This document shows positions 1 through 57,151 of a stretch of DNA of 64,000 nt, one piece after another (within the stretch, counting starts at the first letter, position 1; each line of letters opens with the position of its first letter). The DNA is from an uncultured Candidatus Saccharibacteria bacterium (GTDB lineage: Bacteria; Patescibacteriota; WWE3; CAZQFB01), in assembly GCA_964592525.1 (NCBI GenBank), contig CAZQFB010000004.1:1195-65194 (forward strand), written 5' to 3'. The position numbers and the translations under genes were made by a program. The notes under the pieces were generated by a model. The model made no database searches. It saw only the letters and a list, made by a program, of their open reading frames with translations, and was not told where the DNA came from.

Positions 1-1423
1 ACGAGTCACCATCCCAATACCAACCTTCGGTATTGATGGGGGTTGAGGAGGCGCTGGAGCTATATCCCAATTCACCCTCACAGTTATGGTTAAACCGTAA
101 CATGGCTTCTTGGATCTCTTCACCTCTAAGATTAAGCCAGGTAGAACCAACGAAAGGCTCGGTATTATTGCAGTCAAACCCAGTACCGTCACTCGGCGAG
201 CCTTGATCTACAATTCCCTGGAGCGGGTTGCTGCCTTCTAAAGTAACGTTTCTGATGTATAAGGTGTGGTTGGTATCTTGGTGATCCAGAAAGAGACTTA
301 TGTTGTTTGAGGCAGTGACAGGAGTATTGGCTGGGATAGTAAAGGTATAGGTGTTGGCGTTGTCTGCTTGGACCATAAAATATTCACCTGTGGGGTTATC
401 CGAACCGGTATCAGCCGTGATGAGGTGCTGGTTGTTCACATATAAAGACACTTGCGGACAATTACTGGTACTGCACTGTTGCCTGGTATAGGCTTCAAAA
501 GAAATGGAAGTTATCGGACTGGCATCCTGGACATCCATGGGATCACAACCTGGTCCTGGTGGTATTGGTAAATAGGAATCGCTGCAAAAACCACCAATGG
601 CGGTCAACCCTTCGGGGCGCCAGTCATTTAAAGAAGGATCTAGCCCCAGGGCTTCTTCTTCCGGTCCGACCATTCCCGTAATGGTGATACCTACGGTGCG
701 GAGAGGCTCTTGTGGGCTTTGGTGGATAGTGCATTCCCCCCCAAGCTCTCTCTCAATAGCCAGAATATGCCAATCCAGCATAAAAGAACCACAGACAGCT
801 TCAGTAGCGATTTCGTCCGTGCCCACTTCCCAGTTATAGGTATAAAGCTCCCCCGGGTTAAGAGTTAGTTCCCCACTTTGGACACCTGTGGTGCTTAAAG
901 CGCGCGCTTGCTTGGCAGTCGTGATTTCTGTGACCAGGGTTGGATCAGCAGCATAGGCATAATTGCAGGTTTGCCATAAGTTATCCCATTGGGCTTGTTC
1001 TGTGGTGAGGTCTAGTGGTGATTCCGTAGGCCAGTTACCCACGCACATGCGTAGGGGGTAGAGCTCTTCGGAGTCTAGTAACTCTCCTGGTGTGGCTTGA
1101 CCGAATGGATTATCACAGCGACAGGAGTTTAATTCGGAGTGAATGGTTAAAGTGGAAGCACTAACATTTTTAAGTGTCCATTCCATGATAAACTCCCCTG
1201 CTTCCTCATCAAAATATTTAGTTGGTTGTGATACTTCTAAGATGGGAGATGCCTCACCACCACCTGCTGTTAGATCTTCTTGGCAAGTAATGTCGTAACC
1301 CCCCAAGTCATAAAAAGCACCACTTTTAAGTTGGGTTCTTCTTTGCGCAATATAGGCAGCTACCGGTACCGCCACCAACAACAAAACCGTGACCAACAAA
1401 GAAAATTGTTGTTTGCGGCTCAT
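1..1423 (-). CDS. Cys-rich secreted surface protein, paralog A (N-terminal part; continues past window start)
   Basis: Manual reverse translation from ATG at 1423 gives MSRKQQFSLLVTVLLLVAVPVAAYIAQRRTQLKSGA..., the same basic-tail/TM/QRRxQL(K/R)SGA N-terminus as the next two genes. An internal module (QCSTSNCPQVSLYVNNQHLITADT) resembles modules in the 28646..34330 protein. It is absent from the ORF track because it runs off the window. Confidence 0.6.
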   Translation of the reverse strand, partial: MSRKQQFSLLVTVLLLVAVPVAAYIAQRRTQLKSGAFYDLGGYDITCQEDLTAGGGEASPILEVSQPTKYFDEEAGEFIMEWTLKNVSASTLTIHSELNSCRCDNPFGQATPGELLDSEELYPLRMCVGNWPTESPLDLTTEQAQWDNLWQTCNYAYAADPTLVTEITTAKQARALSTTGVQSGELTLNPGELYTYNWEVGTDEIATEAVCGSFMLDWHILAIERELGGECTIHQSPQEPLRTVGITITGMVGPEEEALGLDPSLNDWRPEGLTAIGGFCSDSYLPIPPGPGCDPMDVQDASPITSISFEAYTRQQCSTSNCPQVSLYVNNQHLITADTGSDNPTGEYFMVQADNANTYTFTIPANTPVTASNNISLFLDHQDTNHTLYIRNVTLEGSNPLQGIVDQGSPSDGTGFDCNNTEPFVGSTWLNLRGEEIQEAMLRFNHNCEGELGYSSSASSTPINTEGWYWDGDS

Positions 1424-1469
1424 GTTGGTAGACTGCCTACCGGGTGGTCGTTTAAAAATTTTCATCTTC

Positions 1470-3647
1470 TTAAAATATCATTTTAATACCTATAAATACT
1501 GCTACCATCACAACTATTGAGAGTACCAAAGCAGCACCATTAACTCCAGCTGGAGGTATTACAGGGTTAGCAACACAGGCCAAAGGATCACTTTTTCTGG
1601 CTTCACATAAACAACCGTTTTGTGGATTATTCCAGTCACAAACTTGGGTATTGGCTGGTTCTTCTCCTACCTTTTCCACACACCCACCACTGTCACAAGC
1701 CCAGTAGGTTGGTAGGCAGTCTGGATCGGGTCCAAGATTTTCACAGACCGGGCCGGGATTGGTAATGGTTGAGACGGTGGGGTCTTCGCAATTATATGTG
1801 TCATAGTTACAGATATAACCACCTGGTGGTGGCGTTGCTTGGCAAGGTTCATCATCTCCCAGACCAGAGCAATCTGGCCCTGGGTTGGTTACGGGGGCTT
1901 GCTGACAGGTGCGGGTGGTGAGATTGCAGATGTAGTCTACAGGTCCGCCTTCTTGGCAAGGTTCATCATCTAGTGGACCAGAGCAATCTGGCCCTGGGTT
2001 GGTTACGGGAGCTTGCTGACAGGTTTGGGTGGTGAGATTGCAGATGTAGTCTACTGGCGCGCCTTCACAAATCTCCCCCACACTCGCGCCAAAGTTGGTG
2101 CAAGGTACTTCGGTGGTTATCTGCTCTACCGCTTTGTTCTCACATATTTGGTTTTCAAAACAAACGTCTCTGCTACAGACGGCTGGTTGGTTGTGGGCTA
2201 GTGCGTCGGTGTAACTGCATCGCTCTAGTCCAGCTAACGAGGGTACCGTTAGCTCTTCGGGCAGATAACAGGTTTTTTGGTAGCAGAATCCTTTACAGGC
2301 ATTAGGATCTTCAGGGTCACAGGTGCTTTTTGCTTCTGCCCCCTCTTTTTTAACGCATTGCTCTCCTTCACAGGACCAGTAGTATTCCACACACTCTTCG
2401 TTTCTACCCGTACTTGGATCATTGCCCGTAGTGTTGCAGGTTTTGTCGCCAGGTTCTAAATCGCCTCTCTTGAGGATACAGGAATTGTTATGACACACAG
2501 CGTTGACATTACATTCACTATCTTGCTCACAGTTAATAACCAACTCTCCTCGGCTTAATCTACCCCTTAAATCCTCAATAGACACATAGCTACAACTGTT
2601 GTTAGCCACACAGATGTTTTCGCGACAATCATCGGCACTGGTGCATTTGTTATTTATTTGGTTGCATTCGTCTCCCACACATTCTCTACAAGACATGCCC
2701 TCACAAATACCGTTGCTAACCACTAAAGGACAATCTTGCGGACAATTGGCATTGGTTTCACCCGGATCGCAGGTACCATTACCACAAAGCGGTTCGGTGC
2801 TAAGTTCGCAAGTACCGCCTACAGGTGTGCTGTCGCTGTAGCGCCAAATAGAGGTAATATCATTACCTTCACCAGTAATCAGCGCCCCTACGGTTGAAGT
2901 TAACTGACCCGGTATTTTACGGATCGTACATTCTTCAGTTTCTTTACTAATCTCAAGGATATCCCAAATGATCTGGAAAGAACCACAATTGGTGTTGGTC
3001 GCGCCTGTGGTGCTGGTTGTCCATAAGAAAGCTTTCTGTTCACCTGGGTTAAGGATAATTGGACCATCATCCGTTTTGATGCCTGTTTTTTGGTTGGTTG
3101 CTTGGGCACGGGCGATCTTTTCGTTGATGATTGTTTGGTTACCATTAGCGTCTAGCTTGGCGGTATCGGCATAATAAGCATAATCACAGTAGTTCCAACG
3201 TTGGTTGACCTCATCAACAGTGGGTGGGTTAGTGGTGGTAATTTCCGGCCAGCTACCAACACACAAATAATCAAAACCATAGTAAGGTGAATTAACATCC
3301 GCACTTAATTCGGCAGGAGTGCTTTGGGCGTTTTCTTCTGAACACCGGCAGGAATAAAGCTCGGCATTGATGGTTAACGTCTCCGCACTCACATTTTCCA
3401 CATCCCAGCTTAGGGTATATTGACCATGCGGGACATCATATTCTTCGTGTAGGTTATAAACCCTTAACACAGTGGGGTAACCAGTAGCAGCGTCTTCCAC
3501 ACAAGAAATGTTATAGTCCGAGTACTCGTAAGCCCCACTTCTTAACTTGGCTCTTTTTTGTGCTAGAAACACTGCCAAGGGAACGACCAGTAACATGATC
3601 AAAAGGATGATGAGCGTAAATAAATGGGTTTGTTTTTTAATCTTCAT
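1470..3647 (-). CDS. Cys-rich secreted surface protein, paralog B (725 aa), with C-terminal hydrophobic anchor / sorting-like signal
   Basis: N-terminal signal-anchor helix followed by AQKRAKLRSGA. Many Cys-rich repeats (PVDYICNLTTQTCQQAPVTNPGPDCSG appears twice; a CGNGTCDPGETNANCPQDCP mini-module). C-terminus is IPPAGVNGAALVLSIVVMVAVFIGIKMIF (motif, hydrophobic stretch, Lys, short tail). Confidence 0.75.
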   Translation of the reverse strand: MKIKKQTHLFTLIILLIMLLVVPLAVFLAQKRAKLRSGAYEYSDYNISCVEDAATGYPTVLRVYNLHEEYDVPHGQYTLSWDVENVSAETLTINAELYSCRCSEENAQSTPAELSADVNSPYYGFDYLCVGSWPEITTTNPPTVDEVNQRWNYCDYAYYADTAKLDANGNQTIINEKIARAQATNQKTGIKTDDGPIILNPGEQKAFLWTTSTTGATNTNCGSFQIIWDILEISKETEECTIRKIPGQLTSTVGALITGEGNDITSIWRYSDSTPVGGTCELSTEPLCGNGTCDPGETNANCPQDCPLVVSNGICEGMSCRECVGDECNQINNKCTSADDCRENICVANNSCSYVSIEDLRGRLSRGELVINCEQDSECNVNAVCHNNSCILKRGDLEPGDKTCNTTGNDPSTGRNEECVEYYWSCEGEQCVKKEGAEAKSTCDPEDPNACKGFCYQKTCYLPEELTVPSLAGLERCSYTDALAHNQPAVCSRDVCFENQICENKAVEQITTEVPCTNFGASVGEICEGAPVDYICNLTTQTCQQAPVTNPGPDCSGPLDDEPCQEGGPVDYICNLTTRTCQQAPVTNPGPDCSGLGDDEPCQATPPPGGYICNYDTYNCEDPTVSTITNPGPVCENLGPDPDCLPTYWACDSGGCVEKVGEEPANTQVCDWNNPQNGCLCEARKSDPLACVANPVIPPAGVNGAALVLSIVVMVAVFIGIKMIF

Positions 3648-3648
3648 A

Positions 3649-6117
3649 TTAATACAACAGTTTCATCCCTAAGGCTAATAAACCAAGTGTTACTAGCGTT
3701 AATAGCAAGGCTGCTCCTTCCGTGCCTGTTTGCGGGTCTTCCGGGGTTAGACAGATGTTAGCCATGCCTTGATCAATATAATCTTTACACAAACAACCAT
3801 CCACCGGCGCATCAACAACACACTTGGTAGCTGTGGTTGGTTGATCACCAAAAATTTCTACACATGCGCCAGTGTCGCAAGCCCAATAGCTCTGGAGACA
3901 ATCTTTATCATTTTCGCACTGGGAGTCTCCGGAAGTTGGTACAATAACGCATCTGTCATTAACATCACATTCGGTATGCCGGTCTGTGGGTACTTCCCCG
4001 CGACAATCTTCATCTACTGTGCAAGGCTGGCTAGTGGGCGGGCTGTCAATCGGGAAAGGTTCACAAGTGGCAGTTGGTCCCGTGCCCACACAATAGGTAG
4101 CACTGCATTCATCAGACTGGGCGGTTACGGTGGTACAAGGGCGGTTGTTGTAACGAGGATCCAGCCGATTCTCTACGCGGATACAAGCGACACCCTCACA
4201 TACATTTTTGGGTGGGGAGCAGAGTTGACCAATATCAACTCCAAAATCACTGCAGGCAACTTCAGTGGTTATATTTTCCACGGCCTTGTTTTCACAGATG
4301 TCAGTCGTGAGATTACATACATTAAGACCGCAGTCATCCGGAGTACCTATCTCACCTATCTCACAAGGGATTAGGTTATCAAGAGCAATGCCACTGGAGA
4401 TCAGGCTTTCCTTGTCCCGACAAACAAAATTATGACAGAGGGCATCGGTGGGTATTCTTTCCACGATCCAGCCATAAGTAAAATTAAGATCACACGCCAG
4501 GGCATCAAAACGTAAGGTCGGCGTGTTGGTACCACCATTATAAGGACAACCGGGAGCATTTATAGATACCCCATCCTCACAAAAAGTATTCACAATACGA
4601 TACCCGAGCGCCGGTCCAGTTTGGGAAATAGTAACGCTGATGTCGGTGGCTTCTCGCAACCCCTCGCTTAAATAAGGTATGGTGAAATCGCGGTGGGCGA
4701 GGTTATCGGTGTCATTGTAAATTAGGGCATTGGATTCAATTGGTCCGGAAGCGGTAGGATCATCGGCGATAATTGATTTGGTCCAGAAACCTGTCACGGG
4801 GACAATATTACCGGCAGTGTCTCTGATTTCAACGGTATTGCTGTAGGGGCAGGTATGCTCTTTGATCCTCCAACCATATGTGATATTAGCGTTACAAGTA
4901 AAACGGAAGTTATCTATACGACCGGTATCTGGTTGACCCGTAATAGCTTCAGTGCCAGCTAAGGAAGTGGGGCACCCTGGTGCTTGCGGGTTATTGTCAA
5001 TACAAAACCTTTCAGCTACATAGTAACCACCTGGGATATGGGTGAGCTCAACTTTGTTGGTATCTGTGTTCATCACATTCCAAGGCAGGTTCCAAGTATG
5101 AGCGGGGTCATATATTTGGGCTTTGCTAAGTGGTGTAACTTGTGCCAAATCATAAGCGCTGACAGATTCACCGGTCGGATTACCTGGGGTAGGATTACCG
5201 TAAATAGTAGATCGGACTAAAAACTCGTTGGTACTGGCATTTAGTACGGTGCCAGGAGAATCTAAAGACTCAATCCTTAAATCCGTAACATAGGGGCATG
5301 GGCAACGGGTGAGGATATCCCACAATTCTAGCATCAGATTTAAGAAACCCTCTACTTCATAAGTAATGGGAAAGACTAGCGGTCCGTAGCCTTCCGCCAG
5401 ACTAACTACACGATCTTTTAAATATTGGTAACCGATATCATTGATGTAATCCGGGTTATTGATATCTCGGAAATGGAAAGCAGTAATTTCTACACCTGTA
5501 GCTTTGAGGTTGTTGGCCGAAGTATTAAGACAGCCCAGATTTAGTGTGCCGTTGACCCAACAAGGATCAGTAGGTGGTGGGTTATAAGCACCATCACTAA
5601 AGATGATTAATTTTTTGGGTTGCGTAGCTGTGCTTAGAGCGGTAGCGGTGGTGTTTAGTGCGGCAGCGATGTTGGAATACTCATGAGTTTGTAGATTATC
5701 TAAGGCATTGTAAATAGCATTTTTGTCATTAGTGAGATTGAGTTTGATGTCAGCATTATCATTAAACTCAATCACGGTGACACGATCTACGCCATCTCCT
5801 TTACCCCCATAAGGATCAAAGTCTAAGGTATCCATAAGAGCTTTGGCGAAGTTAATGGAAGCTTGGCGTTTGGTAATGCCTCCTGGGGCAATTGGGTCTT
5901 CCATGGTTTTGGACATATCCATAGCAATGGCCAAATCAATGTTTTGGTAACAATCATATTCACCGGGGGTGCCTTGTGCGCCACTTCTTAGTTGTTGTCG
6001 GCGTTGGACAATAAAAATAGTGATTGGCACAGAAAGGAGAAGCAAGGCTAATCCTATATAGGTAAAAAGATGTTTTCTTTTTTTCATTAAGGCAGGTTGT
6101 TTAAGTAAATTACTCAT
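3649..6117 (-). CDS. vWA (MIDAS) domain-containing Cys-rich secreted surface protein, paralog C (822 aa), with C-terminal sorting-like signal
   Basis: N-terminal TM followed by QRRQQLRSGA. vWA motifs DLAIAMDMSKTM (DxSxT), NIAAAL and IIFSDG. Cys-rich C-terminal half is paralogous to protein B (ICENKAVENITTEV..., YWACDTGACVE). C-terminal tail is DPQTGTEGAALLLTLVTLGLLALGMKLLY. Confidence 0.75.
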   Translation of the reverse strand: MSNLLKQPALMKKRKHLFTYIGLALLLLSVPITIFIVQRRQQLRSGAQGTPGEYDCYQNIDLAIAMDMSKTMEDPIAPGGITKRQASINFAKALMDTLDFDPYGGKGDGVDRVTVIEFNDNADIKLNLTNDKNAIYNALDNLQTHEYSNIAAALNTTATALSTATQPKKLIIFSDGAYNPPPTDPCWVNGTLNLGCLNTSANNLKATGVEITAFHFRDINNPDYINDIGYQYLKDRVVSLAEGYGPLVFPITYEVEGFLNLMLELWDILTRCPCPYVTDLRIESLDSPGTVLNASTNEFLVRSTIYGNPTPGNPTGESVSAYDLAQVTPLSKAQIYDPAHTWNLPWNVMNTDTNKVELTHIPGGYYVAERFCIDNNPQAPGCPTSLAGTEAITGQPDTGRIDNFRFTCNANITYGWRIKEHTCPYSNTVEIRDTAGNIVPVTGFWTKSIIADDPTASGPIESNALIYNDTDNLAHRDFTIPYLSEGLREATDISVTISQTGPALGYRIVNTFCEDGVSINAPGCPYNGGTNTPTLRFDALACDLNFTYGWIVERIPTDALCHNFVCRDKESLISSGIALDNLIPCEIGEIGTPDDCGLNVCNLTTDICENKAVENITTEVACSDFGVDIGQLCSPPKNVCEGVACIRVENRLDPRYNNRPCTTVTAQSDECSATYCVGTGPTATCEPFPIDSPPTSQPCTVDEDCRGEVPTDRHTECDVNDRCVIVPTSGDSQCENDKDCLQSYWACDTGACVEIFGDQPTTATKCVVDAPVDGCLCKDYIDQGMANICLTPEDPQTGTEGAALLLTLVTLGLLALGMKLLY

Positions 6118-6236
6118 TTCAAATTGTATCCTATTAGGCAGAACGATTGCAAAGGATTCTAAGCTTGAGGTGGGTTTAGCCCATAGAACTAGGAATTAAG
6201 TGGCGGGATTGCGCATAGCTGTGTACTATTAAAGAT

Positions 6237-6968
6237 ATGGTCCAGAAAAACTCTGCTCGCAAGCGCTCTTCCTCGCTGAAGGTGGGGCATCATAAATTAT
6301 GTGCTTTGGCTGGGAAAATAAAGCGACCTTTGGGTTTAGCTATTTTGTTTACAAGCACCTTTGTACTGTTTAATGAAATATTGTATCCCGCTTTTAATAC
6401 TAGAGCCGAGGCCAAAGTACTCCTACCCGTTCCCGACAATTATTTTGAAGAAATGGCGCTTAAAAGGTTAGCGGCTTTTTCTTTTGCAGAGTTGGCTTTT
6501 AATGAACTGATTGATCCCTATGCTGATTTAGCACCCGGTGAAACAATCCCACCTGTGTTTTATCTCACTGTACCTGAATTGGGATTATCTGGGGTTGCCG
6601 TAGAAACTAATAGTGTGGATACAACCCCCCACGAGATGCTGGGTCATTATAAAGGTAGTTCTCTGCCAGGTAAGAGAGGTAATGTATTTGTTTATGGTCA
6701 CTCTACTTTGCCTTCTCATTTTGATATCAACAACTACAAAACACTGTTTACTTTTTTGCCCAAGCTTGAAGCGGGAGATGAGATTATTGTTAATTACAAT
6801 AATAAGGATTATATCTACGTGGTTGAGAAAAAAGAGGTTTTTGAGCCGGATGAGCTGGATCCACTAAAATGGCGCCATCTTCATTACGGCTCGCTTTCTC
6901 TCATGACCTGCACGCCACCCGGTACTACTAACCAACGCACTGTCGTTTTTGCTAAGCAAGTCTATTGA
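6237..6968 (+). CDS. sortase family transpeptidase
   Basis: N-terminal membrane anchor. Conserved sortase core: His (VYGHSTLP), TLxTC-type motif (LSLMTCTPPGT) and downstream Arg (NQRTVVFAK). Divergently oriented to the three surface-protein genes. Confidence 0.7.
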   Translation: MVQKNSARKRSSSLKVGHHKLCALAGKIKRPLGLAILFTSTFVLFNEILYPAFNTRAEAKVLLPVPDNYFEEMALKRLAAFSFAELAFNELIDPYADLAPGETIPPVFYLTVPELGLSGVAVETNSVDTTPHEMLGHYKGSSLPGKRGNVFVYGHSTLPSHFDINNYKTLFTFLPKLEAGDEIIVNYNNKDYIYVVEKKEVFEPDELDPLKWRHLHYGSLSLMTCTPPGTTNQRTVVFAKQVY

Positions 6969-7398
6969 TACATGGTTTAAAAAGTTAGCCCACTTAACTT
7001 TGGGTATTTGCTCTTAAAATTTGAGGGATACTCCTTAATAATTGTTTTAACTAGGGAGCTGGGTTGAGGTTGGGCGTGACCGAAGTCTTATTCATAATAC
7101 CAACCTCATCAGCTAGTGCAAGAAGAATAAAACCCGAAATCACTGAAAACCAGCGTAAGTATTGAATTGCTAACGGCATCAATTCTACTAGTGTGTTTAT
7201 ACTAATGTTTACTGACTTTAAGTAGAGAAGCCATGCAGGTGAAAAAGTATTTGAGGTAAATAACGGAATGACTAATCAGGATTAAATATACTATCTAATT
7301 AGTAATCCTTTACCATTATGACTCGCTAGTGGGTGAGGTGTACTTTGCGTTGTTAATTTTTTCACCCACACGTTTCGCCTGTGGGTTATACTTACCTT

Positions 7399-8055
7399 AT
7401 GCTCTGGCTTAATTACAAAACATATGAAAAAGGCATCGGCGATAGAGGTTTGCGTTTAGCGAGAATTTGTGAGGAAGTGTCCCAAGAGTTTGGCGTGCGG
7501 ATGGTTGTGTGCCCGCAGATCGCCGATATTTATCGCTTGGGTCAGCAAGCTAATGTGGAAATTTGGGCACAGCATGTGGACGCTATCCTACCGGGTAAAA
7601 ATACTGGTTGGCAGTTGCCACAAGCGATTTTTCACGCCGGGGCTTCTGGTGTATTACTTAACCACAGCGAACACCCCCTATCACTAGCAGACCTTACCAA
7701 GACAATTAATATTTGTAAGGATATTGGTTTGCAGACGATGGTCTTTGCCTCTTCGGTTGAACAGGTGATGGAGTTTGATGGTTTAGGAGCCGACTATTTA
7801 GCCTTTGAGCCACCGACATTGGTTGGTGGGACTGTGTCTGTTTCTGTGGCACAACCAAATGAGATCAAGGTAGCTTTGGCGGCAGCAGTGAAAACAAATT
7901 TAGTTGTTGGAGCTGGGATTAATTCGGTGGCAGACATTCAAACCTGTCTGGATTTGGGAGTGTTAGGTGCTCTGGTGGCTTCGGCGGTTATGGAAAAAAC
8001 AGACGACCCGGAAACACTGCTTAGGGAATTAATTGCTCCCTTTGCTTCAGTTTGA
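7399..8055 (+). CDS. tpiA: triosephosphate isomerase, short archaeal type
   Basis: ~220 aa TIM-barrel protein. Begins MLWLNYKTYEKG..., like archaeal TIM N-termini (LIINYKAY). Internal motifs ASGVLLNHSEH and VGAGINS. The ATG at 7399 is preferred over the track's GTG at 7381. Confidence 0.6.
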   Translation: MLWLNYKTYEKGIGDRGLRLARICEEVSQEFGVRMVVCPQIADIYRLGQQANVEIWAQHVDAILPGKNTGWQLPQAIFHAGASGVLLNHSEHPLSLADLTKTINICKDIGLQTMVFASSVEQVMEFDGLGADYLAFEPPTLVGGTVSVSVAQPNEIKVALAAAVKTNLVVGAGINSVADIQTCLDLGVLGALVASAVMEKTDDPETLLRELIAPFASV

Positions 8056-31600: not shown

Positions 31601-34330
31601 AGCTATTGTATGTTCATGTTTGATACTCCGGGTGACACGGCAGCGGATTGTGTGGGTAAAGCGATTGGTGCTTTGTGTGGTGAGGTAGTGGTGGTGCCAA
31701 CCTGTGGTGATGGGGTTTGTACTCCGCCTGAAGATAGCACCACCTGCCCACAGGATTGCCCGGCTGGAGGACTTACTTGTGGTGATGGGGTGTGTGAGCC
31801 CCCAGAGGATGAGATTAACTGCCCCCCAGATTGTGCTGTGGCTTTGTGTAGGGATGAGACCGCTGAATGTGGTGCTGGGGCATGTTGCCCCGGTTTAGTT
31901 GAAGTGGGTTTTTGTGAGCTAGGTTCGGATGGATTATGCGTATGTATGGATTGTGGCTCTGTTTGTAGAGCTTGTGGTAATGGGGTGTGTGAGGCTAATG
32001 AAAATGAGTGTATGTGTCCGCAAGATTGCGCGGTGGGTACCCCGGATTTAGAAGTATCGGGTATTACTTATTATGCTTCTGAAGCAGACGCAATTACGGG
32101 GACTACTCCTTTAACGGAAGCAGATCTTATTAATTACCTCGGCCAACAAATATATTTTAAGGCAGAGTTAACTAATATTGGTGATGGTCAGGTGCCTGTG
32201 GGGTTCTTTACCGAATGGCGTCAGGGTACTCCAGATGAAGACATTGCCGAGATGACCGTGTTAGATCACAGTTATCACACTTACCCAGTGGGTCCGATCT
32301 TGCCTCCGGGAACGGTATCAGAGCATGAAAGCACCATTCAAAATTGGACGGTAGTGGCAGGAACCCATAAAATCGGCTTTATTGCTGATAGTGAAAACTT
32401 CCCGGGTTCAACTCAAGGCGGCTATATTAGTGAAGTTAATGAAAACAATAATGCCTACACGATCACCTTACAGATTTCAGATTTAATTCCAATCCCAGAA
32501 GATGCTCATTGTGTGGGTTCAGCTTGTGTGGTGGGTGCTGGGGTTAAACCTTGTGTGGCTGATAGTGATTGTACTGATTACTGTGGGGCGATGGATATTA
32601 CTAAGACGCTTATGGGTCCAGATGAGCCTGTTATTATTACCCAGCCGATATTTTATTACTGGAATGGTGGTTATTGTGAGGAGTTTGATCCTTACCAATA
32701 TCTCTGTGAAGGCTCTGATTGCGGTGAGATGTTCAGAAGTGGTGATCGTTTAATGAGTAATACTCCGAAGCAGGCTTTACTGGATTGCCAGGCGGCTTTT
32801 GCCCATTGCCCTCAACAGGAGCCGGAAGTGTGTAACGCCGATCTATGTGTCAAAGCTCAAGCGGAGATAGACCATTTTGAGTTGGCTGATGGCTTGGAAA
32901 TTAATAACCAGCCACCCATGTTCAGGCTTTGGGTCAATGGCACTGCGTTGACTGAAGTTGGTGGCGTGAGACTACCGGTGCAACAGGTAGTGGCAAACGA
33001 AGGAGCTTGGCAAATTTATACCTTTGATGTTCCCGGTTTGCAACCAGATTCCTCTGTCTATATTGCCTATGTCAATGATCGCTTTGATACCCCAGAGCAT
33101 AACCGTAACTTGTTGATTGACTGGGTAGAGATTGCAGGTAACCGGATTCAGGCGGAGAACGCTCAATATGATATTGGTGAATTTGTCGGACACGCTGAAG
33201 TCTTTCGTGGTCATCAGTCTTCAGGTATGGACTGTAAGAGAGTGATAACGGGTCGGGAGGTTATGGAAGTTGAGGGGATGTTGCGCTTCAATAGTCCTTG
33301 TTATACCCCGGGTTCGTTACCTTTGGGTACCATCACCGGTAGATTATACGAGGGTGCTAGCTTTGCCGGCGACCAGCTAAGTGATCCTGGTTTTGAGCTG
33401 ACTGCTTCTTCAGCCTACACTTTACGGCTTGACCCTTCGGCTGGTACCACAGCTATTTTTGATTTTAGTGCCTACACGCCAAGTGGTTATACCCTAGCTG
33501 ATACTTGGCAGGGATTGCATGATCTGGATCTGATGTATGTTGGTGAGGGTGAAGTGCGCTATCGTGTTTGTGAGGAAGGTGGTTCTTGCACTGGTCTGTT
33601 GGAAGCAAGTAGCTTTGCCGATCATAACGTCATTACGATAGAGATCCCAGAAACTGGTTTAGGTACAACTCCTCTACTCACTATTGATTGGTACATTGGT
33701 GAAGTAACCGAAGCACAGGGGGATTGTGATATTTGCGAGCTTAACCCCAGCCGTAGCTACACTATAGCTGATGGGTTAGTAGCCGTGCTCAACCAAGCTG
33801 GCGCAGCTTATCAAGTACCAGCCGAGGTGCTTTTAGGCATTCTCCTACATGAGGGTTGGCATTCCAGTGGACCCCATGTCTTAGACTTTACACAAGAGCA
33901 AGTTAGCCAAGCTGTTACCTCGCGTGAACCCTATTGTTTTAGGAACTCTTACTGTGCGGCTGGACCGTTCCAATTTTCAACCAACCCTAGCTCTTTTGTT
34001 GGCACTGTTACAGAACTAAGCAATGGGTGCCCTGACTGGCCTGGCTATGACTTATGGTCAATTACAACTGGCACTGCCGGTTCTGATACTCGCCTTGAGT
34101 TTAATCAGGTGTTAGGCGAAACTGCGGACTATACTCCCCACCCCTGTAATTTAAGAGATGCTGCCTTTGCTGCGGCGGCTTATGTTAAAGAACATTTTAA
34201 TGCTGTTCCTAATAATTGTACTGCTTGGGGTGAGGCTGCATACGATGAAGCCTGGCGGATTTGGCATGGTACTTGCTATGACATCTGCGATAATAATTTT
34301 GAGTTTCTTACTGAAGTGTGCTTGGAGTAA
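28646..34330 (+). CDS. giant Cys-rich secreted/surface protein (1894 aa) with repeated CGDGVC..CPxDC mini-modules and duplicated beta-sandwich-like modules
   Basis: N-terminal TM followed by YRRQIFFNRAAS. Five copies of CG(D/N)GVC(E/T)xPEDxxxCP(E/Q)DC. Two ~100-aa modules (QCFSSNCPRIALFVNGEHIITTDS and LWVNGTALTEVGG...IDWVEIAGNRI) are shared with paralog A. The C-terminal ~180-aa Cys/Trp-rich domain is of unknown function. Confidence 0.7.
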   Translation: MMPNLPEPLTIPPSEIPSGGRSFKPFPHIKPQALIVLFMFLITPLVLFMLYRRQIFFNRAASLEEYTYEFTTPARVNAEVANAQIYPDLAIGEQRHFVTWRDHSVSGSDEAADIMVATSDGLVAGDSWGGYTQLTQASITASDDYYPVPSIAAANDDQAIVVWDGSSELYFSRTSNGGDEWTSPAIIQEKPPAITAISVEAKVSGQCFSSNCPRIALFVNGEHIITTDSKNYGEFVIIDSSVAQKYTFNLPSSVEITEADEVSIRVYNVEGLRTAYFRAVSINDQPEAKPGILDRGLLEDGSSFDGVDYAEITGSNWVTVSADEGAEGMLRFNHTSAGLLGNQAEFTFFNSGSEGFAHSPKIIYANGTYYVVAVILNDSEMKLVMYHSLDQGDSWSFEEVEAGLTGTDWQSVTPAIAYGGGKLHIVYAASDEIKYALREVASGSSWSTPQTIAPSFVSNPRLIANDDKVFVAFAGGEASVISIATKNHSDSNFNFYQVGTGENTHHPDLALSGDLLQVYWVSGNDLSYSGSRDEGVTWLAPIMVTTGGGNQYPAVAAGANTPGSVVYQGSASGDFDIYASSVVIEEVVNACGDGVCEAPEDSTSCPEDCPPSTTSPDLVVSGISYYASEGDALAGTNPLSEDALSNYLGQDIYFKAALQNVGSVILQKFYVDWREGSPGDVYEEMSSFKMEEHSYPENERLSNLLPGEISSHGSTVGRWTVPGAGSYAVGFRADVEHEPDLNPQAIGSLEEDDEDNNEFVLTFQISGSSCGDGVCTPPEDGSNCPEDCGITPVPRNGNIVVVAKGIASSSGVMPKIKVAADGSFLKVTDGGDETEVEVTSEYQSYYFAITTSREKIDVLFANSDINLAIADVADKAILLIDRVSMYTPFLQETRIEVENGMGSASEAIILDTGGSFAQEFSSLTTRHFIQATDLVCSADNLLGGVTPCESNALTISETGALRINYDSSVQCLQDNNPSLPLLAPRSYCMFMFDTPGDTAADCVGKAIGALCGEVVVVPTCGDGVCTPPEDSTTCPQDCPAGGLTCGDGVCEPPEDEINCPPDCAVALCRDETAECGAGACCPGLVEVGFCELGSDGLCVCMDCGSVCRACGNGVCEANENECMCPQDCAVGTPDLEVSGITYYASEADAITGTTPLTEADLINYLGQQIYFKAELTNIGDGQVPVGFFTEWRQGTPDEDIAEMTVLDHSYHTYPVGPILPPGTVSEHESTIQNWTVVAGTHKIGFIADSENFPGSTQGGYISEVNENNNAYTITLQISDLIPIPEDAHCVGSACVVGAGVKPCVADSDCTDYCGAMDITKTLMGPDEPVIITQPIFYYWNGGYCEEFDPYQYLCEGSDCGEMFRSGDRLMSNTPKQALLDCQAAFAHCPQQEPEVCNADLCVKAQAEIDHFELADGLEINNQPPMFRLWVNGTALTEVGGVRLPVQQVVANEGAWQIYTFDVPGLQPDSSVYIAYVNDRFDTPEHNRNLLIDWVEIAGNRIQAENAQYDIGEFVGHAEVFRGHQSSGMDCKRVITGREVMEVEGMLRFNSPCYTPGSLPLGTITGRLYEGASFAGDQLSDPGFELTASSAYTLRLDPSAGTTAIFDFSAYTPSGYTLADTWQGLHDLDLMYVGEGEVRYRVCEEGGSCTGLLEASSFADHNVITIEIPETGLGTTPLLTIDWYIGEVTEAQGDCDICELNPSRSYTIADGLVAVLNQAGAAYQVPAEVLLGILLHEGWHSSGPHVLDFTQEQVSQAVTSREPYCFRNSYCAAGPFQFSTNPSSFVGTVTELSNGCPDWPGYDLWSITTGTAGSDTRLEFNQVLGETADYTPHPCNLRDAAFAAAAYVKEHFNAVPNNCTAWGEAAYDEAWRIWHGTCYDICDNNFEFLTEVCLE

Positions 34331-40917: not shown

Positions 40918-43035
40918 GTGATTTCCACGAGTACTAATATTTGGTATGATAGTTATATGGCGTCGCCAGATATAGCTGCCCCAAAACTAACCAGTGATAC
41001 CAACGAAAAATTGGGTTTTCAAGAAAGAAAGCCCCCCTTAAAAATTGCTTCTTCTGCTTTACTGTTTATGTTGCTGCTTTTGATAGGTATTACTTATGTT
41101 ATTTACCAAAATGCAGACAAACCCGAAATTAAAGATCCTTCCTCCAAAGGTAGTAAGGTTAAGGTTGGTGAAAAATTTACGCTGCAACAATTTGCCAGTG
41201 AAGATGAGTACAAAGAATATCTTAAATCTTACGAGAATCAAAGAAATGCTCAAGATGGTTATGGCGTGCCTTTAATGAAGCAAACGGCTCCTTCCGTTAA
41301 CAGTGCGGTGCCTGTTCCTAGCACCACAGGAGCGTTAGAAGATTCTTCTCTTGGCGGTGGGGGAGGTCCTGGGCGAGTTTCGGAAACCAACGTCCAAGTG
41401 CTTGGTATTGATGAACCAGACATTGTCAAAACTGATGGGGAAAATATATTTCTTTCCAGTGAGTATTATCTATATAATTATGATCTTGGTCGGAAATATG
41501 AGGGGGGTTATGAGATTAACCCGGCAGAGGGTTATTCCCGAGAAAAAACCCAAATAATTAAAGCATTTCCTCCGGAAGCTTTGTCTAAAATTACTGATAT
41601 TGAAACGGCGGGGGAATTGTTATTAAGCCAAGACACCCTACTCGTTTTTTCTGGGGTAAATCTTTTAGCTTTTGATGTTTCTAATCCACAAGAACCACAA
41701 AAACAGTGGCAATTAAATTTTGAAGAAAGCCAAGAGATTGTAACTTCAAGATTATTTAACGATAAGTTGTATTTGGTGGCTCGTAAATTTGTCTCTTCTT
41801 ATGATCCGTGCCCTATCCCCTTGCTTGAAGGTGCAGAGGCTCTCAATATTTCTTGTACCGATATTTATTATCCCGATGTTACAACTGCTGTTTCTGACAG
41901 TACTTATACTGTGTTACAGGTAGATATAGCTACGGGAAAGGTCAAACAAAAAGTGTCTTTTGTGGGTAATGGCTATGATTCAGTTGTTTACATGTCTCCA
42001 CAGGCTTTTTATATCACCTATAACATGATTGATTCTTATAATGAAGTTACTTTAGACTTTTACGCTACAAAGCTAAACGATTTAATTCCGGCTGAATTGG
42101 TGAAACGTATTCAAGAGATTAAGGGGCTAAACATTAGTGCCACTGCCAAGATGGTGGAGGTGAATTATGAATTAAACAATTATCGTAATTCTCTTTCAGC
42201 TGATAGTAGTTTAGAGTTTGAAAATAACCTTACGAACCGTTTAGTTGATTACCTAAAAGAGCGGGTTCGAGATCTAGTGAGATCTGGTATTGTGCGCGTG
42301 ACTATAGAAGACTTTAAGGTAACTGCTTCGGTTATTGTACCCGGTTCGCCTCTCAATCAGTTTTCACTTGATGAATACGACGGCTATTTACGTTATGCCA
42401 CTAGTGCTAATGCTTGGAGCTTTGGTTCGGAAAATAGTACCAATGATGTTTACATTTTAGATCAGACCTTAAAAGTGGTCGGTCAGGTACAGGATTTGGG
42501 GTTAAGCGAAAGTATTTATTCGGTGCGTTTTATTAAGGAGAGAGGCTATGTAGTTACCTACCGTCAGATCGATCCTTTTTATGTGTTGGATTTATCTAAT
42601 CCCCAAAACCCACAACTTAAGGGAGAATTGAAAATACCTGGTTATTCTTCTTATCTTCATCCACTTGGCCAGGAGCGGATTTTAGGTATTGGTGAAGAGG
42701 GCAGGAATGTAAAAGTGTCTTTATTTAATGTTACGAACGCTTCTGAACCGCTTGAGGTAAGTAAATATGCTTTGGATGAGTATTGGAGTGAAGTATCCCA
42801 AACGCACCATGCCTTCTTGTTGGATGAGGAAAAAGAGATTTTCTTTATTCCCGGAAGTAAGGGTGGTTATATATTCACTTACGCCAAAGATAACTTATCG
42901 CTAGTGAAAGCGGTGAGTGCGTCTGGAGTAAGACGGGCTTTATATCTAGATGACTACTTATACCTTGTGGGGGATAGGGAAATTACGATTTGGGATGAGA
43001 ATACTTGGGATAAAGTAAACGAACTCACTTTGTAA
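40918..43035 (+). CDS. secreted beta-propeller domain protein (705 aa) with N-terminal membrane anchor
   Basis: N-terminal TM (ALLFMLLLLIGITYVIY). Repeated strand-rich motifs (VVTYRQIDPFYVLDLSNPQNPQ, KVSLFNVTNASEP, LYLVGDREITIWD) resemble the 'beta-propeller domain' family of secreted proteins. Confidence 0.55.
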   Translation: MISTSTNIWYDSYMASPDIAAPKLTSDTNEKLGFQERKPPLKIASSALLFMLLLLIGITYVIYQNADKPEIKDPSSKGSKVKVGEKFTLQQFASEDEYKEYLKSYENQRNAQDGYGVPLMKQTAPSVNSAVPVPSTTGALEDSSLGGGGGPGRVSETNVQVLGIDEPDIVKTDGENIFLSSEYYLYNYDLGRKYEGGYEINPAEGYSREKTQIIKAFPPEALSKITDIETAGELLLSQDTLLVFSGVNLLAFDVSNPQEPQKQWQLNFEESQEIVTSRLFNDKLYLVARKFVSSYDPCPIPLLEGAEALNISCTDIYYPDVTTAVSDSTYTVLQVDIATGKVKQKVSFVGNGYDSVVYMSPQAFYITYNMIDSYNEVTLDFYATKLNDLIPAELVKRIQEIKGLNISATAKMVEVNYELNNYRNSLSADSSLEFENNLTNRLVDYLKERVRDLVRSGIVRVTIEDFKVTASVIVPGSPLNQFSLDEYDGYLRYATSANAWSFGSENSTNDVYILDQTLKVVGQVQDLGLSESIYSVRFIKERGYVVTYRQIDPFYVLDLSNPQNPQLKGELKIPGYSSYLHPLGQERILGIGEEGRNVKVSLFNVTNASEPLEVSKYALDEYWSEVSQTHHAFLLDEEKEIFFIPGSKGGYIFTYAKDNLSLVKAVSASGVRRALYLDDYLYLVGDREITIWDENTWDKVNELTL

Positions 43036-55909: not shown

Positions 55910-57151
55910 CTACTTGGGGGAGAGCAGGAAAGGCAGGTACACTCTTACCGGGCTGTAATAAGGATCCGGCAAGGCGTTGGGGCAGGCTCGCTGGAAAGCG
56001 ACTTGCGGACCGTTCGTGCCCCTATATACCAAATCCATCAACCCGTCCCCGTTCAGATCCGGAGCCATAAACTCGTCCTGGTCAAGCCAATAGGGCAGTG
56101 GTCCGATGTCTTCTTGGTACCACTGGCCAGTACTGTCCTCCAGCCAACTGATTGAGTAGTTATTGACGATTACCAACTCGTCCTGACCGTCACAAGTCAG
56201 ATCAATGAAGGACATTCCCACAACACCAGGGGGTATTTCTCGAAACCACGAGGGTTTCAAGTGATCCCCTTCTTGGATGAAGGTATGGATGGCAGAATCA
56301 TTGCCACCATAGGCAATGACCACATCCAGAAGACCATCCTGAACTCGCCCTTCACCTGGTCCTGGTGCACTTAAATCAACCAGATAGATGGCTCGAGGTA
56401 GACCATACCACGGTCTATCCCTCTGATAATCTACCGGTTGGTCAAAACCACCACCAGGCAGACCAGCATAGACCGAGAAAACGGGGTTCTGACCCTGACC
56501 CCACATCACCACCAGGTCGCCCAAGCCATCTCCGTTGACATCACCAAACACAATCCGGTTATCACCGGCAGGGTGGCTATACATTCTGGTTACCTTTAGC
56601 TCGTTCCGGTTTGGATCAAATCGGAATACAGCCAAGTGTACCAGTACAGACCTTGGCCAGCTGGTCACAGCCAAGCCCCCAGGAAACACGGCGAGGGCAT
56701 CGGCAGCTACATCGGCGACGGTCCCAAAAAGGTACTTGTCGGCCCGACCAGACCACCATACTTGGTACTGGTTTCCACAAAAGACAACCACGTCGTTGTG
56801 ACCGTCTTGGTTAATGTCCTCGATTCCAAGCAGGGCCTTCTCGTGGAGCATCAACTTGGTATCCATGATGCTCTGGTGATAGACGCCCTCTTGGTGATCG
56901 AAGGTATGGATCTGGACATTGCCACCAGTTCGGCTGGTGGCGACCAGGATTTCTGGTTCGGGGTCAGTGTCCATGTTACCAATGGCTATGGACTTGTCCC
57001 ATGTGGCATCCATGTTAGCTAGCAGTGTCGGTTCGGTGAACCGATCACTTGGGATCCGGGAAATTGGGTCCCTTGCCTCCACAAGAGAGGGAAGGCTCAA
57101 AAGAACCCATCCCAGAACGATTACTACTGCGAACATTTGGAGACCGCGCAT
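55910..57151 (-). CDS. secreted FG-GAP/VCBS repeat protein (integrin-alpha-like beta-propeller)
   Basis: Signal peptide (MRGLQMFAVVIVLGWVLLSLPSLVEA). Repeated Ca-binding-like DxNGDGxxDLV motifs (DINQDGHNDVVV, GDVNGDGLGDLVV, DLNGDGLMDLV, DLTCDGQDELV). GC clearly higher than the genome background. Confidence 0.65.
   Translation of the reverse strand: MRGLQMFAVVIVLGWVLLSLPSLVEARDPISRIPSDRFTEPTLLANMDATWDKSIAIGNMDTDPEPEILVATSRTGGNVQIHTFDHQEGVYHQSIMDTKLMLHEKALLGIEDINQDGHNDVVVFCGNQYQVWWSGRADKYLFGTVADVAADALAVFPGGLAVTSWPRSVLVHLAVFRFDPNRNELKVTRMYSHPAGDNRIVFGDVNGDGLGDLVVMWGQGQNPVFSVYAGLPGGGFDQPVDYQRDRPWYGLPRAIYLVDLSAPGPGEGRVQDGLLDVVIAYGGNDSAIHTFIQEGDHLKPSWFREIPPGVVGMSFIDLTCDGQDELVIVNNYSISWLEDSTGQWYQEDIGPLPYWLDQDEFMAPDLNGDGLMDLVYRGTNGPQVAFQRACPNALPDPYYSPVRVYLPFLLSPK

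Follow-up and report, generated by a model that had tools for sequence, protein, structure and literature searches.

Does a sortase of a bacterium of the Candidate Phyla Radiation (CPR) anchor the proteins that are encoded next to it, if the C-termini of these proteins resemble sorting signals and do not read LPXTG? The question is raised by the beginning of a 64,000-nt (64-kb) stretch of contig CAZQFB010000004.1 (this whole stretch is called the window below), in which three tandem genes on the minus strand, here named A, B, and C, lie divergent to a sortase gene (Table 1). The preliminary description of this DNA had read the three genes as cysteine-rich paralogues, one of them (C) cut by the window edge, had placed a bona fide sortase about 120 bp away, and had proposed a pilus- or adhesin-like locus with non-LPXTG sorting tails in a CPR-like organism. 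All sequence features listed there were found at the positions given. Genes A and B are separated by 1 nt and genes B and C by 46 nt, and because of these short distances the three genes probably form one operon; promoter and terminator scans of window positions 1–7500 yielded no more sites than shuffled sequence. Taken together, the results described below lead us, with moderate confidence, to the answer that the enzyme is a CPR housekeeping sortase that anchors A and B, and probably C, to the cell wall as adhesin-like proteins.

The C-termini of A and B both have the tripartite architecture of a sorting signal, that is, a short motif (DPQTG in A, IPPAG in B), about 15–20 hydrophobic residues, and a basic tail, here with a Lys, as had been recognized from the start; the hydrophobic residues number 18 in both. 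Five further tails also have this architecture, so that seven could be compared: those of A and B of the window, of P0034, of L001, of L002, and of an A-like and a B-like protein of L089, which together represent five genomes (Table 1). All seven follow the consensus [P/I/G]-x-[T/S/A]-G-x-x-G-[A/L/M]-[A/T], after which come about 13–19 (mostly 18) hydrophobic residues and then [KR] with three more hydrophobic residues. If the five motif residues are numbered, position 5 is Gly throughout (7/7), position 4 is Thr in four tails, Ser in two, and Ala in one, and position 2 is Pro in five, the other two having Ile and Gly. The proteins that bear these tails are otherwise 29–39% identical. An alignment of orthologous tails had been named beforehand as a check that could overturn the idea, and the idea survived it, with the motif and the hydrophobic/positive tail being retained. 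The precise motif that had been predicted, P-x-[TA]-G, fared less well: the Gly (7/7) and the conserved tail stood, the remainder did not, with Pro in 5/7 and orthologues reading IDTG, PISG, and GVSG. Ser at position 4 occurs in both L089 paralogues and in no other tail, which suggests that one enzyme may process all tails of a genome, a pattern that gene conversion could produce equally well. The peptides CLTPEDPQTGTEGA, NPVIPPAGVNGA, CLTPEDPQTGTEGAA, and ANPVIPPAGVNGAA are candidate substrates that represent these tails. A scan of stop-to-stop open reading frames (ORFs) of at least 100 aa found no such tail in the 64-kb window other than those of A and B, and about 97 kb of DNA from the window lineage contained no further tail-bearing ORF.

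Compared with known signals, the tails do not constitute a new kind of signal and are best regarded as degenerate sortase signals. The novelty originally seen in the departure from LPXTG has to be given up, as xPxTG signals with a variable first residue are already known, for example YPRTG, IPQTG, and VPDTG in the pilins of S. pneumoniae (PMC5640630). DPQTG departs from the known signals only at position 1, which was already variable, and IPPAG departs at the Thr. LPxAG signals occur in S. aureus.

The association of the tails with a sortase is not confined to the window. Three other metagenomic genomes (Table 1), the sortases of which are 60–71% identical to that of the window, show the same arrangement: the gene for a von Willebrand factor type A (vWA) protein, alone or together with paralogues, diverges from a sortase gene, and the gene for triose-phosphate isomerase (TIM) comes after the latter. 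In all four contexts that could be inspected (window, L001, L002, and L089/L090), the tail-bearing genes are the immediate upstream neighbors of the sortase gene and are oriented divergently to it. The cargo of the cluster varies from genome to genome and consists of A, B, and C, of A and a C-like gene, or of A and a second vWA protein; the last occurs in L002, where the vWA orthologue is followed by the second vWA gene and not by a paralogue of the B or C type. The vWA orthologue of L001 is split into an ORF of 680 aa and a tail-carrying ORF of 152 aa, which may represent a frameshift, a pseudogene, or an assembly error. The close relatives also have a gene for a small secreted protein (138–160 aa) between the vWA gene and the sortase gene, which the window, with its gap of 119 nt, does not. 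This protein contains the sequence DVDW(R/Y)R(F/V/S).. and has no Pfam match; a likeness to the pre-peptidase C-terminal domain was seen by eye only.

The family itself is rare and narrow, with about five members known among 1.84 billion representative proteins, and because of this narrowness a broad motif logo cannot be drawn. A profile of the tail modules of A and B retrieved from this set only A, B, P0034, and P0036, which is identical to a fragment from L001; two further matches, P0035 and P0037, were spurious repeat proteins and were discarded. Word-based searches with B (5.8 billion proteins) and with A each found only the query among the 8000 candidates considered, the search with B missing even its paralogue A; neither search is a measure of rarity. 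A metagenome scan with the full-length A family found nothing; the scan with the close sortases recovered L089, L090, and L091.

The adjacency also bears on the question of which enzyme would read the tails. A tripartite design of short motif, helix, and basic residue is common to all sorting systems of this kind (bioRxiv 10.1101/2023.06.07.544157), and the tails are atypical for LPXTG signals. Both points would fit an exosortase/archaeosortase-, rhombosortase-, or myxosortase-like enzyme encoded elsewhere in the genome, with the sortase serving other substrates. However, no tail matched any of the NCBIfam models for non-sortase C-terminal sorting domains, and the only similarities, all below threshold, were to sortase-type models (L002 tail versus LPXTG_anchor, 13.2 bits at a cut-off of 15.9; L001 tail versus Rumino_NPXTG, 15.4 bits at a cut-off of 23.5). 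No such enzyme was recognizable among the window proteins scanned, a scan that covered part of them, and the adjacency to the sortase is conserved. We therefore regard processing by a different enzyme as highly improbable.

The neighboring enzyme is a genuine sortase of a clade outside the curated classes, because it passes the cut-off of the generic family, misses those of all classes, and has the catalytic triad and the fold. It matches the Pfam family Sortase (PF04203) with an E-value of 9.6e-23 and 80.7 bits (threshold 26.6) and the generic NCBIfam model sortase_fam (TIGR01076) with 51.6 bits (cut-off 39.35). The NCBIfam class models, which have cut-offs of 160–166, gave 55.8 bits for class C (NF033745, cut-off 160), 50.8 for class E (NF033747, cut-off 160), 36.9 for class D, and 30.6 for class F. 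His155, Cys225, and Arg234, the three residue types named in the preliminary description, are invariant in an alignment of 28 homologous sequences and align with the catalytic residues of PDB sortases. An AlphaFold2 (AF2) model had a mean predicted local distance difference test (pLDDT) value of 72.7, with most core blocks at 83–96 and a few loop blocks down to 53, and its predicted architecture is the eight-stranded beta-barrel of sortases. In a Foldseek search with this model against the PDB, 138 matches had E-values of at most 0.001, and all 50 matches listed were sortases with a probability of 1.00 (best E-value 1e-10). Class C enzymes came first (7cg9, 3tbe, and 2xwg, about 1e-10), followed by SrtA (about 5e-9) and SrtE (3e-8), and class C pilin sortases were also the best PDB matches by sequence (phmmer, 1e-9). 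The enzyme has a predicted membrane anchor only at the N-terminus (approximately residues 29–55) and ends with ..VVFAKQVY directly after the last strand, without a C-terminal anchor. A profile search found no second sortase in the window.

The genomic context of more distant relatives indicates what kind of sortase this is. The 31 homologues that were recovered were either without a name or annotated as sortase of a ‘Patescibacteria group bacterium’, and a scan of the GTDB species representatives yielded 80 sortase loci with at most 49% identity to the window sortase, none of them from the genome of the window itself and most of them from candidate division WWE3, Patescibacteria, Microgenomates-type, or mislabelled metagenome-assembled genomes; the CPR-like nature of the organism was corroborated by these sortase relatives. 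The WWE3-type sortases are 35–49% identical to the window sortase and share with it the blocks GHYKGSSLPG, YGHS, NYKT(I/L)F, and SLMTC.P.GT. The order of the WWE3-type loci is PGK, an unnamed gene, AFOR_N, TIM, LCP (LytR_cpsA_psr), holA, and sortase, followed by four small convergent genes and then S20, MurJ, and LepA. In loci of the Microgenomates type, the genes for AlaRS and for a protein of about 780 aa precede the sortase gene, and thymidine phosphorylase or RuvX and then an MltG-like gene come after it. Because the orthologues are situated in such conserved housekeeping blocks, the results suggest that the sortase is a core component of the envelope and not an accessory of a pilus island. 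More than half of the CPR genomes encode a sortase, which is near-universal in Microgenomates (PMC6744442), and WWE3 and TM7 genomes contain sortases together with sorted proteins predicted from LPXTG (PMC3812714).

In addition, the sortases of this clade consistently adjoin x-P/L-x-T-G signals, because at least 57 of 83 related CPR loci, mostly of the WWE3 type, carry a gene convergent to the sortase gene whose product contains a VPxTG motif. Its 3' end lies only a few nucleotides from the sortase stop codon, the distance usually being 0–80 nt. The protein is bitopic and has 140–200 aa, with an N-terminal helix (GFKTF(I/V)LTLS(I/V)SL), a low-complexity linker rich in Thr, Ser, and Glu, and a C-terminal half composed of ..VLAGA..TQST-VP[E/D/A]TG, a second helix, and the conserved ending (N/G)PRK.AL..FEK. 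Among the 57 motifs, V predominates at position 1; position 2 has P in 39 and L in 12, position 4 has T in 48, S in 7, and G in 2, and all 57 have G at position 5. The protein has no Pfam family, a homologue was not found in the window, and no description of a bitopic VPxTG partner beside CPR sortases was found in the literature searched. It may be the universal cognate substrate of the CPR sortase, a membrane-to-wall tether, or a regulator. Most departures of the motifs of the window lineage fall within or near the range of this partner set, in which a non-Leu residue at position 1 and Ser at position 4 also occur, and Ile at position 2 resembles Leu; Ala at position 4, as in window B, is absent from it.

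When the sortase columns were compared with P or L at position 2 of the partner motif, the L-class sortases formed one clade, with the P-class nested at 85–88% identity, and the discriminating columns are markers of the clade. The beta6/beta7 loop, which in SrtA and SrtB determines how motif positions 1 and 2 are recognized, is three residues shorter in the sortases of the window lineage than in those of the WWE3 type according to the alignment. By analogy, this difference may bear on motif recognition, and we mention it as a lead only. Two ORFs that adjoin the sortase gene in L033 encode proteins with IPETG and VPSTG, followed by a helix and a basic tail, which look like conventional CPR sortase substrates. 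After the VPxTG gene there are three more small genes, one of which is PilO-like (PF04350, 6.2e-7); the block that these genes make up with S20 and MurJ is conserved in the four loci examined (L003, L005, L006, and L007).

The putative substrates are large cysteine-rich proteins of mosaic type, as judged from their pairwise similarities. A and B share the C-terminal approximately 250 residues (33% identity, E = 6e-26, BLASTP), and B and C share the N-terminal approximately 350 residues (32% identity over 356 aa, E = 2e-38, BLASTP). The common N-termini and internal modules that had been reported were thus found again, and all three proteins start with the same type of signal, which consists of basic residues, a hydrophobic stretch of about 20 residues containing VP, and Q(R/K)RxQL(R/K)SGA. 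The N-terminus of C is MSRKQQFSLLVTVLLLVAVPVAAYIAQRRTQLKSGA; its product is predicted to be secreted, contains Cys, and has the same N-terminal signal and head domain as B. Cys accounts for 4.6% of the residues of A and 7.7% of B, compared with mostly 0–1.8% in other window proteins and 3.4% in one protein of 1894 aa. DsbA-like and VKOR families are enriched in CPR genomes (PMC6744442). Within A, the N-terminal signal is followed by the vWA domain with a metal-ion-dependent adhesion site (MIDAS), two beta-rich modules of about 130 aa that both end in C..TYGW, a Cys-rich stalk that is also present in B, and the tail. Comparison with orthologues indicates that the true start of A may be Met11 (MKKRKHLF..). 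Gene B contains a tandem duplication of a 38-aa Cys-rich stalk module (..YICNLTTxTCQQAPVTNPGPDCSG..), and because the two copies of 114 nt are 91% identical, the stalk of B appears to have been expanded recently. No Pfam families were found in B and C.

As had been stated for the sortase-proximal protein, the vWA domain of A is complete. It was identified with Pfam VWA_2 (2.9e-13, 50.8 bits at a threshold of 27) and VWA (6.1e-11, 43.3 bits at a threshold of 23.8), and the three motifs start at residues 67 (DMSKT), 149 (NIAAAL), and 171 (IIFSDG). In the alignment with P0034, L001, and L002, the MIDAS-type residues D67-M-S69-K-T71 of A correspond to DxSxS in the three orthologues, the second loop is found around S147 (Y-S-N-I; G/A-T-S/R in the orthologues), and the Asp of SDG is D175; both the S/T loop and this Asp are conserved. 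The domain therefore belongs to the vWA family with MIDAS residues, and metal binding is predicted. A PDB sequence match to the domain at E ≤ 0.01 was not found, and an AF2 model of residues 48–570 that was built from two sequences had a pLDDT of 39.7, too low for a fold search.

The combination of a vWA protein and two paralogues in one operon invites the reading as a sortase-assembled pilus or fiber, with A as the tip adhesin, B and C as shaft or base, and a class C-like polymerizing enzyme, and vWA tip adhesins are indeed typical of sortase-assembled pili. The class C sortases are also the best matches in sequence (phmmer), in fold (Foldseek), and among the NCBIfam classes. However, the class C score of 55.8 bits is far below 160 and nearly equalled by that of class E, and in Foldseek class C is only slightly ahead of SrtA and SrtE (1e-10 versus 5e-9 to 3e-8). 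Class C sortases are also anchored in the membrane at the C-terminus, and their active site is covered by a lid that bears a conserved DP(F/W/Y) motif, whereas the window sortase is without such an anchor, and the DPY that is present at residues 92–94 of its putative lid or N-terminal linker (pLDDT 56–62) is not conserved in the orthologues with 60–71% identity. A regex scan found neither a [YFW]PK pilin motif nor an E-box in A, B, and C, and pilin, Cna, or isopeptide Pfam domains were likewise not detected in them. The single sortase of the window is orthologous to CPR sortases in housekeeping synteny, and the composition of the cluster differs between genomes. The pilus reading, favored initially, is thus not borne out, and we consider it unlikely to a high degree.

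The reading that we prefer, anchoring by a housekeeping sortase, would comprise the following steps. A, B, and probably C would be exported by the Sec machinery via the conserved N-terminal signal that ends with ..LRSGA. Once extracellular, they would fold so that a disulfide-rich stalk carries a head domain, which in A would be the vWA/MIDAS domain for ligand binding. The C-terminal hydrophobic segment and the single Lys or Arg would hold the proteins in the membrane, where the neighboring membrane-anchored sortase would cleave x-[P/I]-x-[T/S/A]-G between [T/S/A] and G and transfer the proteins to an amine of the cell wall (lipid II/peptidoglycan), resulting in covalently wall-anchored adhesins. 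The sortase would act as the general, housekeeping enzyme of the lineage and not as a pilus polymerase.

Several observations speak against this proposal. Leu is found at motif position 1 in none of the seven tails, where D, E, P, or I occurs; Pro, a key determinant of known signals, is absent from two of them (IDTG and GVSG); and the basic tail, a single K or R with three hydrophobic residues, is shorter than in classical signals. The window tails matched none of the curated hidden Markov models (HMMs) of the LPXTG type, including TIGR01167. A signal peptide and a C-terminal helix would also be expected of a type I membrane protein, the adjacency to the sortase could be inherited synteny in one narrow lineage with about five known family members, and peptidoglycan genes were not seen in the window, MurJ, LCP, and MltG being present in related loci only.

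Alternatively, the tails may be ordinary, uncleaved membrane anchors. A, B, and C would then be type I membrane adhesins, [T/S/A]-G-x-x-G-A-A would be the Gly/Ala-rich start of the helix, and the sortase would be adjacent through inherited gene order. The variable Pro, the missing match of the window tails to sorting-signal HMMs, and the restriction of all known examples to one narrow lineage fit this alternative, as does the fact that TIM, the other neighbor of the sortase, is a housekeeping gene and that distant CPR sortases reside in housekeeping blocks without proteins of the A/B/C type. On the other hand, Gly at position 5 is invariant and position 4 is always a small or hydroxyl residue across paralogues in which the adjacent residues vary freely, and a basic tail of one residue would be weak for a stable anchor. 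Furthermore, at least 57 other genomes have x-P/L-x-T-G followed by a helix encoded next to related sortases, and the order beside the sortase has been kept although the proteins have diverged to about 30% identity. We consider uncleaved anchors to be a serious but rather unlikely explanation, and anchoring by the sortase remains the reading that we adopt.

A wider scenario is put forward tentatively, as a possibility that we would not yet favor: CPR bacteria may possess a sortase class of their own outside classes A–F, with a relaxed x-[P/L/I]-x-[T/S/A]-G specificity and a minimal basic tail, which was recruited in this lineage for fast-evolving, disulfide-rich, vWA-headed adhesins for attachment to a host, the VPxTG protein being the ancestral universal substrate or regulator. 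CPR sortases, the clustering of sortases with their substrates, and xPxTG signals are already known; new are the narrow Cys-rich family with one vWA-headed member, the degenerate motif with a minimal tail, and the sortase outside the curated classes. The CPR/Patescibacteria in culture grow attached to other microbes, but little is known of their envelope and attachment factors. If the sortase processes the tails, a concrete rule for the prediction of wall-anchored CPR surface proteins would follow, and the strict LPXTG searches of earlier CPR genome papers would miss such proteins. In that case, vWA heads on disulfide-rich stalks would be candidate host-attachment adhesins, and a sortase of possibly relaxed specificity, which might be useful in protein ligation, would be at hand. 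If the tails are not processed, the locus encodes membrane-anchored surface proteins beside a housekeeping gene.

Table 1. Coordinates and features of the sortase locus, of other surface protein genes in the window, and of related loci. Positions refer to the window unless a locus is named.
Feature	Position	Strand	Description
Gene C (partial)	2-1423	-	translation: N-terminal 474 aa inside the window, C-terminus beyond its edge
Gene B	1470-3647	-	725 aa, 56 Cys
Tail of B	1473-1559	-	IPPAG-VN-GAALVLSIVVMVAVFIGI-KMIF, 18 hydrophobic residues in GAALVLSIVVMVAVFIGI; aligned as PVIPPAG-VN-GAAL..GIKMIF
Tandem duplication in B	1838-2066	-	114 nt x 2, 91% identical; Tandem Repeats Finder score 388
Gene A	3649-6117	-	822 aa, 38 Cys
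Tail of A	3652-3738	-	DPQTG-TE-GAALLLTLVTLGLLALGM-KLLY, 18 hydrophobic residues in GAALLLTLVTLGLLALGM; aligned as PEDPQTG-TE-GAAL..GMKLLY
vWA domain of A	5431-5937	-	residues 61-229; Pfam VWA_2 and VWA
Divergent gap, gene A/sortase	6118-6236		119 nt
Sortase gene	6237-6968	+	243 aa; Pfam Sortase
Sortase His155	6699-6701	+	in YGHS
Sortase Cys225	6909-6911	+	in SLMTC
Sortase Arg234	6936-6938	+	
TIM gene	7381-8055		downstream of sortase, as in sortase orthologues
441-aa protein gene	21605-22930		secreted protein of unknown family, after the RHS-repeat protein gene
RHS-repeat protein gene	22927-27948	-	1673 aa, secreted
CBM60 protein gene	28646-34330	+	1894 aa
Beta_propel protein gene	40918-43035	+	predicted surface protein
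FG-GAP repeat protein gene	55910-57151	-	predicted surface protein
Locus L001			ENA assembly; vWA protein divergent from sortase, TIM after
Locus L002			Logan assembly; vWA protein divergent from sortase, TIM after
Loci L089/L090			JGI metagenomes; vWA protein divergent from sortase, TIM after
Tail of P0034			PEDIDTG-TS-GAAL..GVKLLF
Tail, L001			PEEPDTG-VN-GAAL..GLRLIF
Tail, L002			P--PDTG-VE-GATV..GIRLLF
Tail, L089 B-like			PPPPISG-TS-GLAV..SIRMLL
Tail, L089 A-like			VGVSG-ASV-GMAV..ALRLLLR
Split vWA orthologue	L001:1592-4070	-	ORFs of 680 aa and 152 aa
Second vWA gene	L002:1-1152	-	
Small secreted-protein gene	L001:4220-4657; L002:4109-4525; L089:6189-6671; L088:3-350	+	
VPxTG gene (examples)	L045:10495-11004; L007:10745-11251; L014:10645-11109	-	range L003-L070
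IPETG and VPSTG ORFs	L033:5904-6410; L033:7000-7695	+; -	adjoin sortase gene
Three small genes after VPxTG gene	L007:11270-12660	-	equivalents in L003, L005, and L006

The window encodes several other predicted surface proteins. One is a polymorphic-toxin-like protein with RHS repeats (3.4e-17) and a weak match to the SpvB N-terminal domain, after which the gene for the 441-aa secreted protein follows. The protein of 1894 aa mentioned above for its Cys content contains a CBM60 module (3.3e-15) and has no sorting-signal-like tail, and the Beta_propel protein (PF09826, 1.4e-105) and the FG-GAP repeat protein are likewise without a tail.

The locus can be compared with four kinds of known systems. 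The PEP-CTERM/exosortase, PGF-CTERM/archaeosortase, GlyGly-CTERM/rhombosortase, and MYXO-CTERM systems also have a short motif that abuts a C-terminal helix and one or more basic residues, but the tails match none of these models, and their motif resembles the T-G core of sortase signals. The class C pilus islands, such as that of S. pneumoniae with RrgA and SrtC, are similar in that a vWA protein and paralogous surface proteins are encoded beside a sortase, in their xPxTG-type signals, the first residue of which varies (YPRTG, IPQTG, and VPDTG; PMC5640630), and in having the sortases that are nearest in PDB sequence and fold. In contrast, the window sortase is below the class C threshold, without a C-terminal anchor, without the conserved lid motif, and of a type found in housekeeping synteny; in A, B, and C no pilin motif, E-box, or Cna-type domain was found, and short-repeat stalks with putative disulfides replace the isopeptide-bonded Ig-like domains of pilins. 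RrgA is a vWA tip adhesin, as are SpaC of C. diphtheriae/L. rhamnosus and GBS104.

The housekeeping sortases of classes A and E, which anchor LPXTG/LAXTG surface proteins to peptidoglycan, have the following in common with the window system: a single membrane-anchored enzyme with a His-Cys-Arg triad in a conserved core-genome context, substrates that start with a signal and carry a motif, hydrophobic residues, and a basic residue at the C-terminus, and Thr-Gly (here also Ala-Gly and Ser-Gly) at the presumed scissile site. The motifs recognized by the classes are LPXTG (A), (N/S/P)PXTG (B), LPXTG (C), LPXTA (D), LAXTG (E), and LPXTG (F) (PMC8225981). The window sortase differs in missing all class HMM cut-offs, its presumed motif lacks L at position 1 and, in the window lineage, can deviate from P or A at position 2, the tail comprises one basic and three hydrophobic residues, and the organism is a CPR bacterium with a poorly understood envelope. 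The fourth system is the sortase family described for CPR genomes (fam000526, Meheust et al., 2019, PMC6744442; Kantor et al., 2013, PMC3812714), with which the window enzyme shares the invariant sequence blocks and the nearby TIM gene. Compared with the WWE3-type loci of this family, the window lineage is without the convergent gene for the bitopic VPxTG protein and without the LCP-holA neighbors, and it has instead the divergent upstream operon of Cys-rich proteins.

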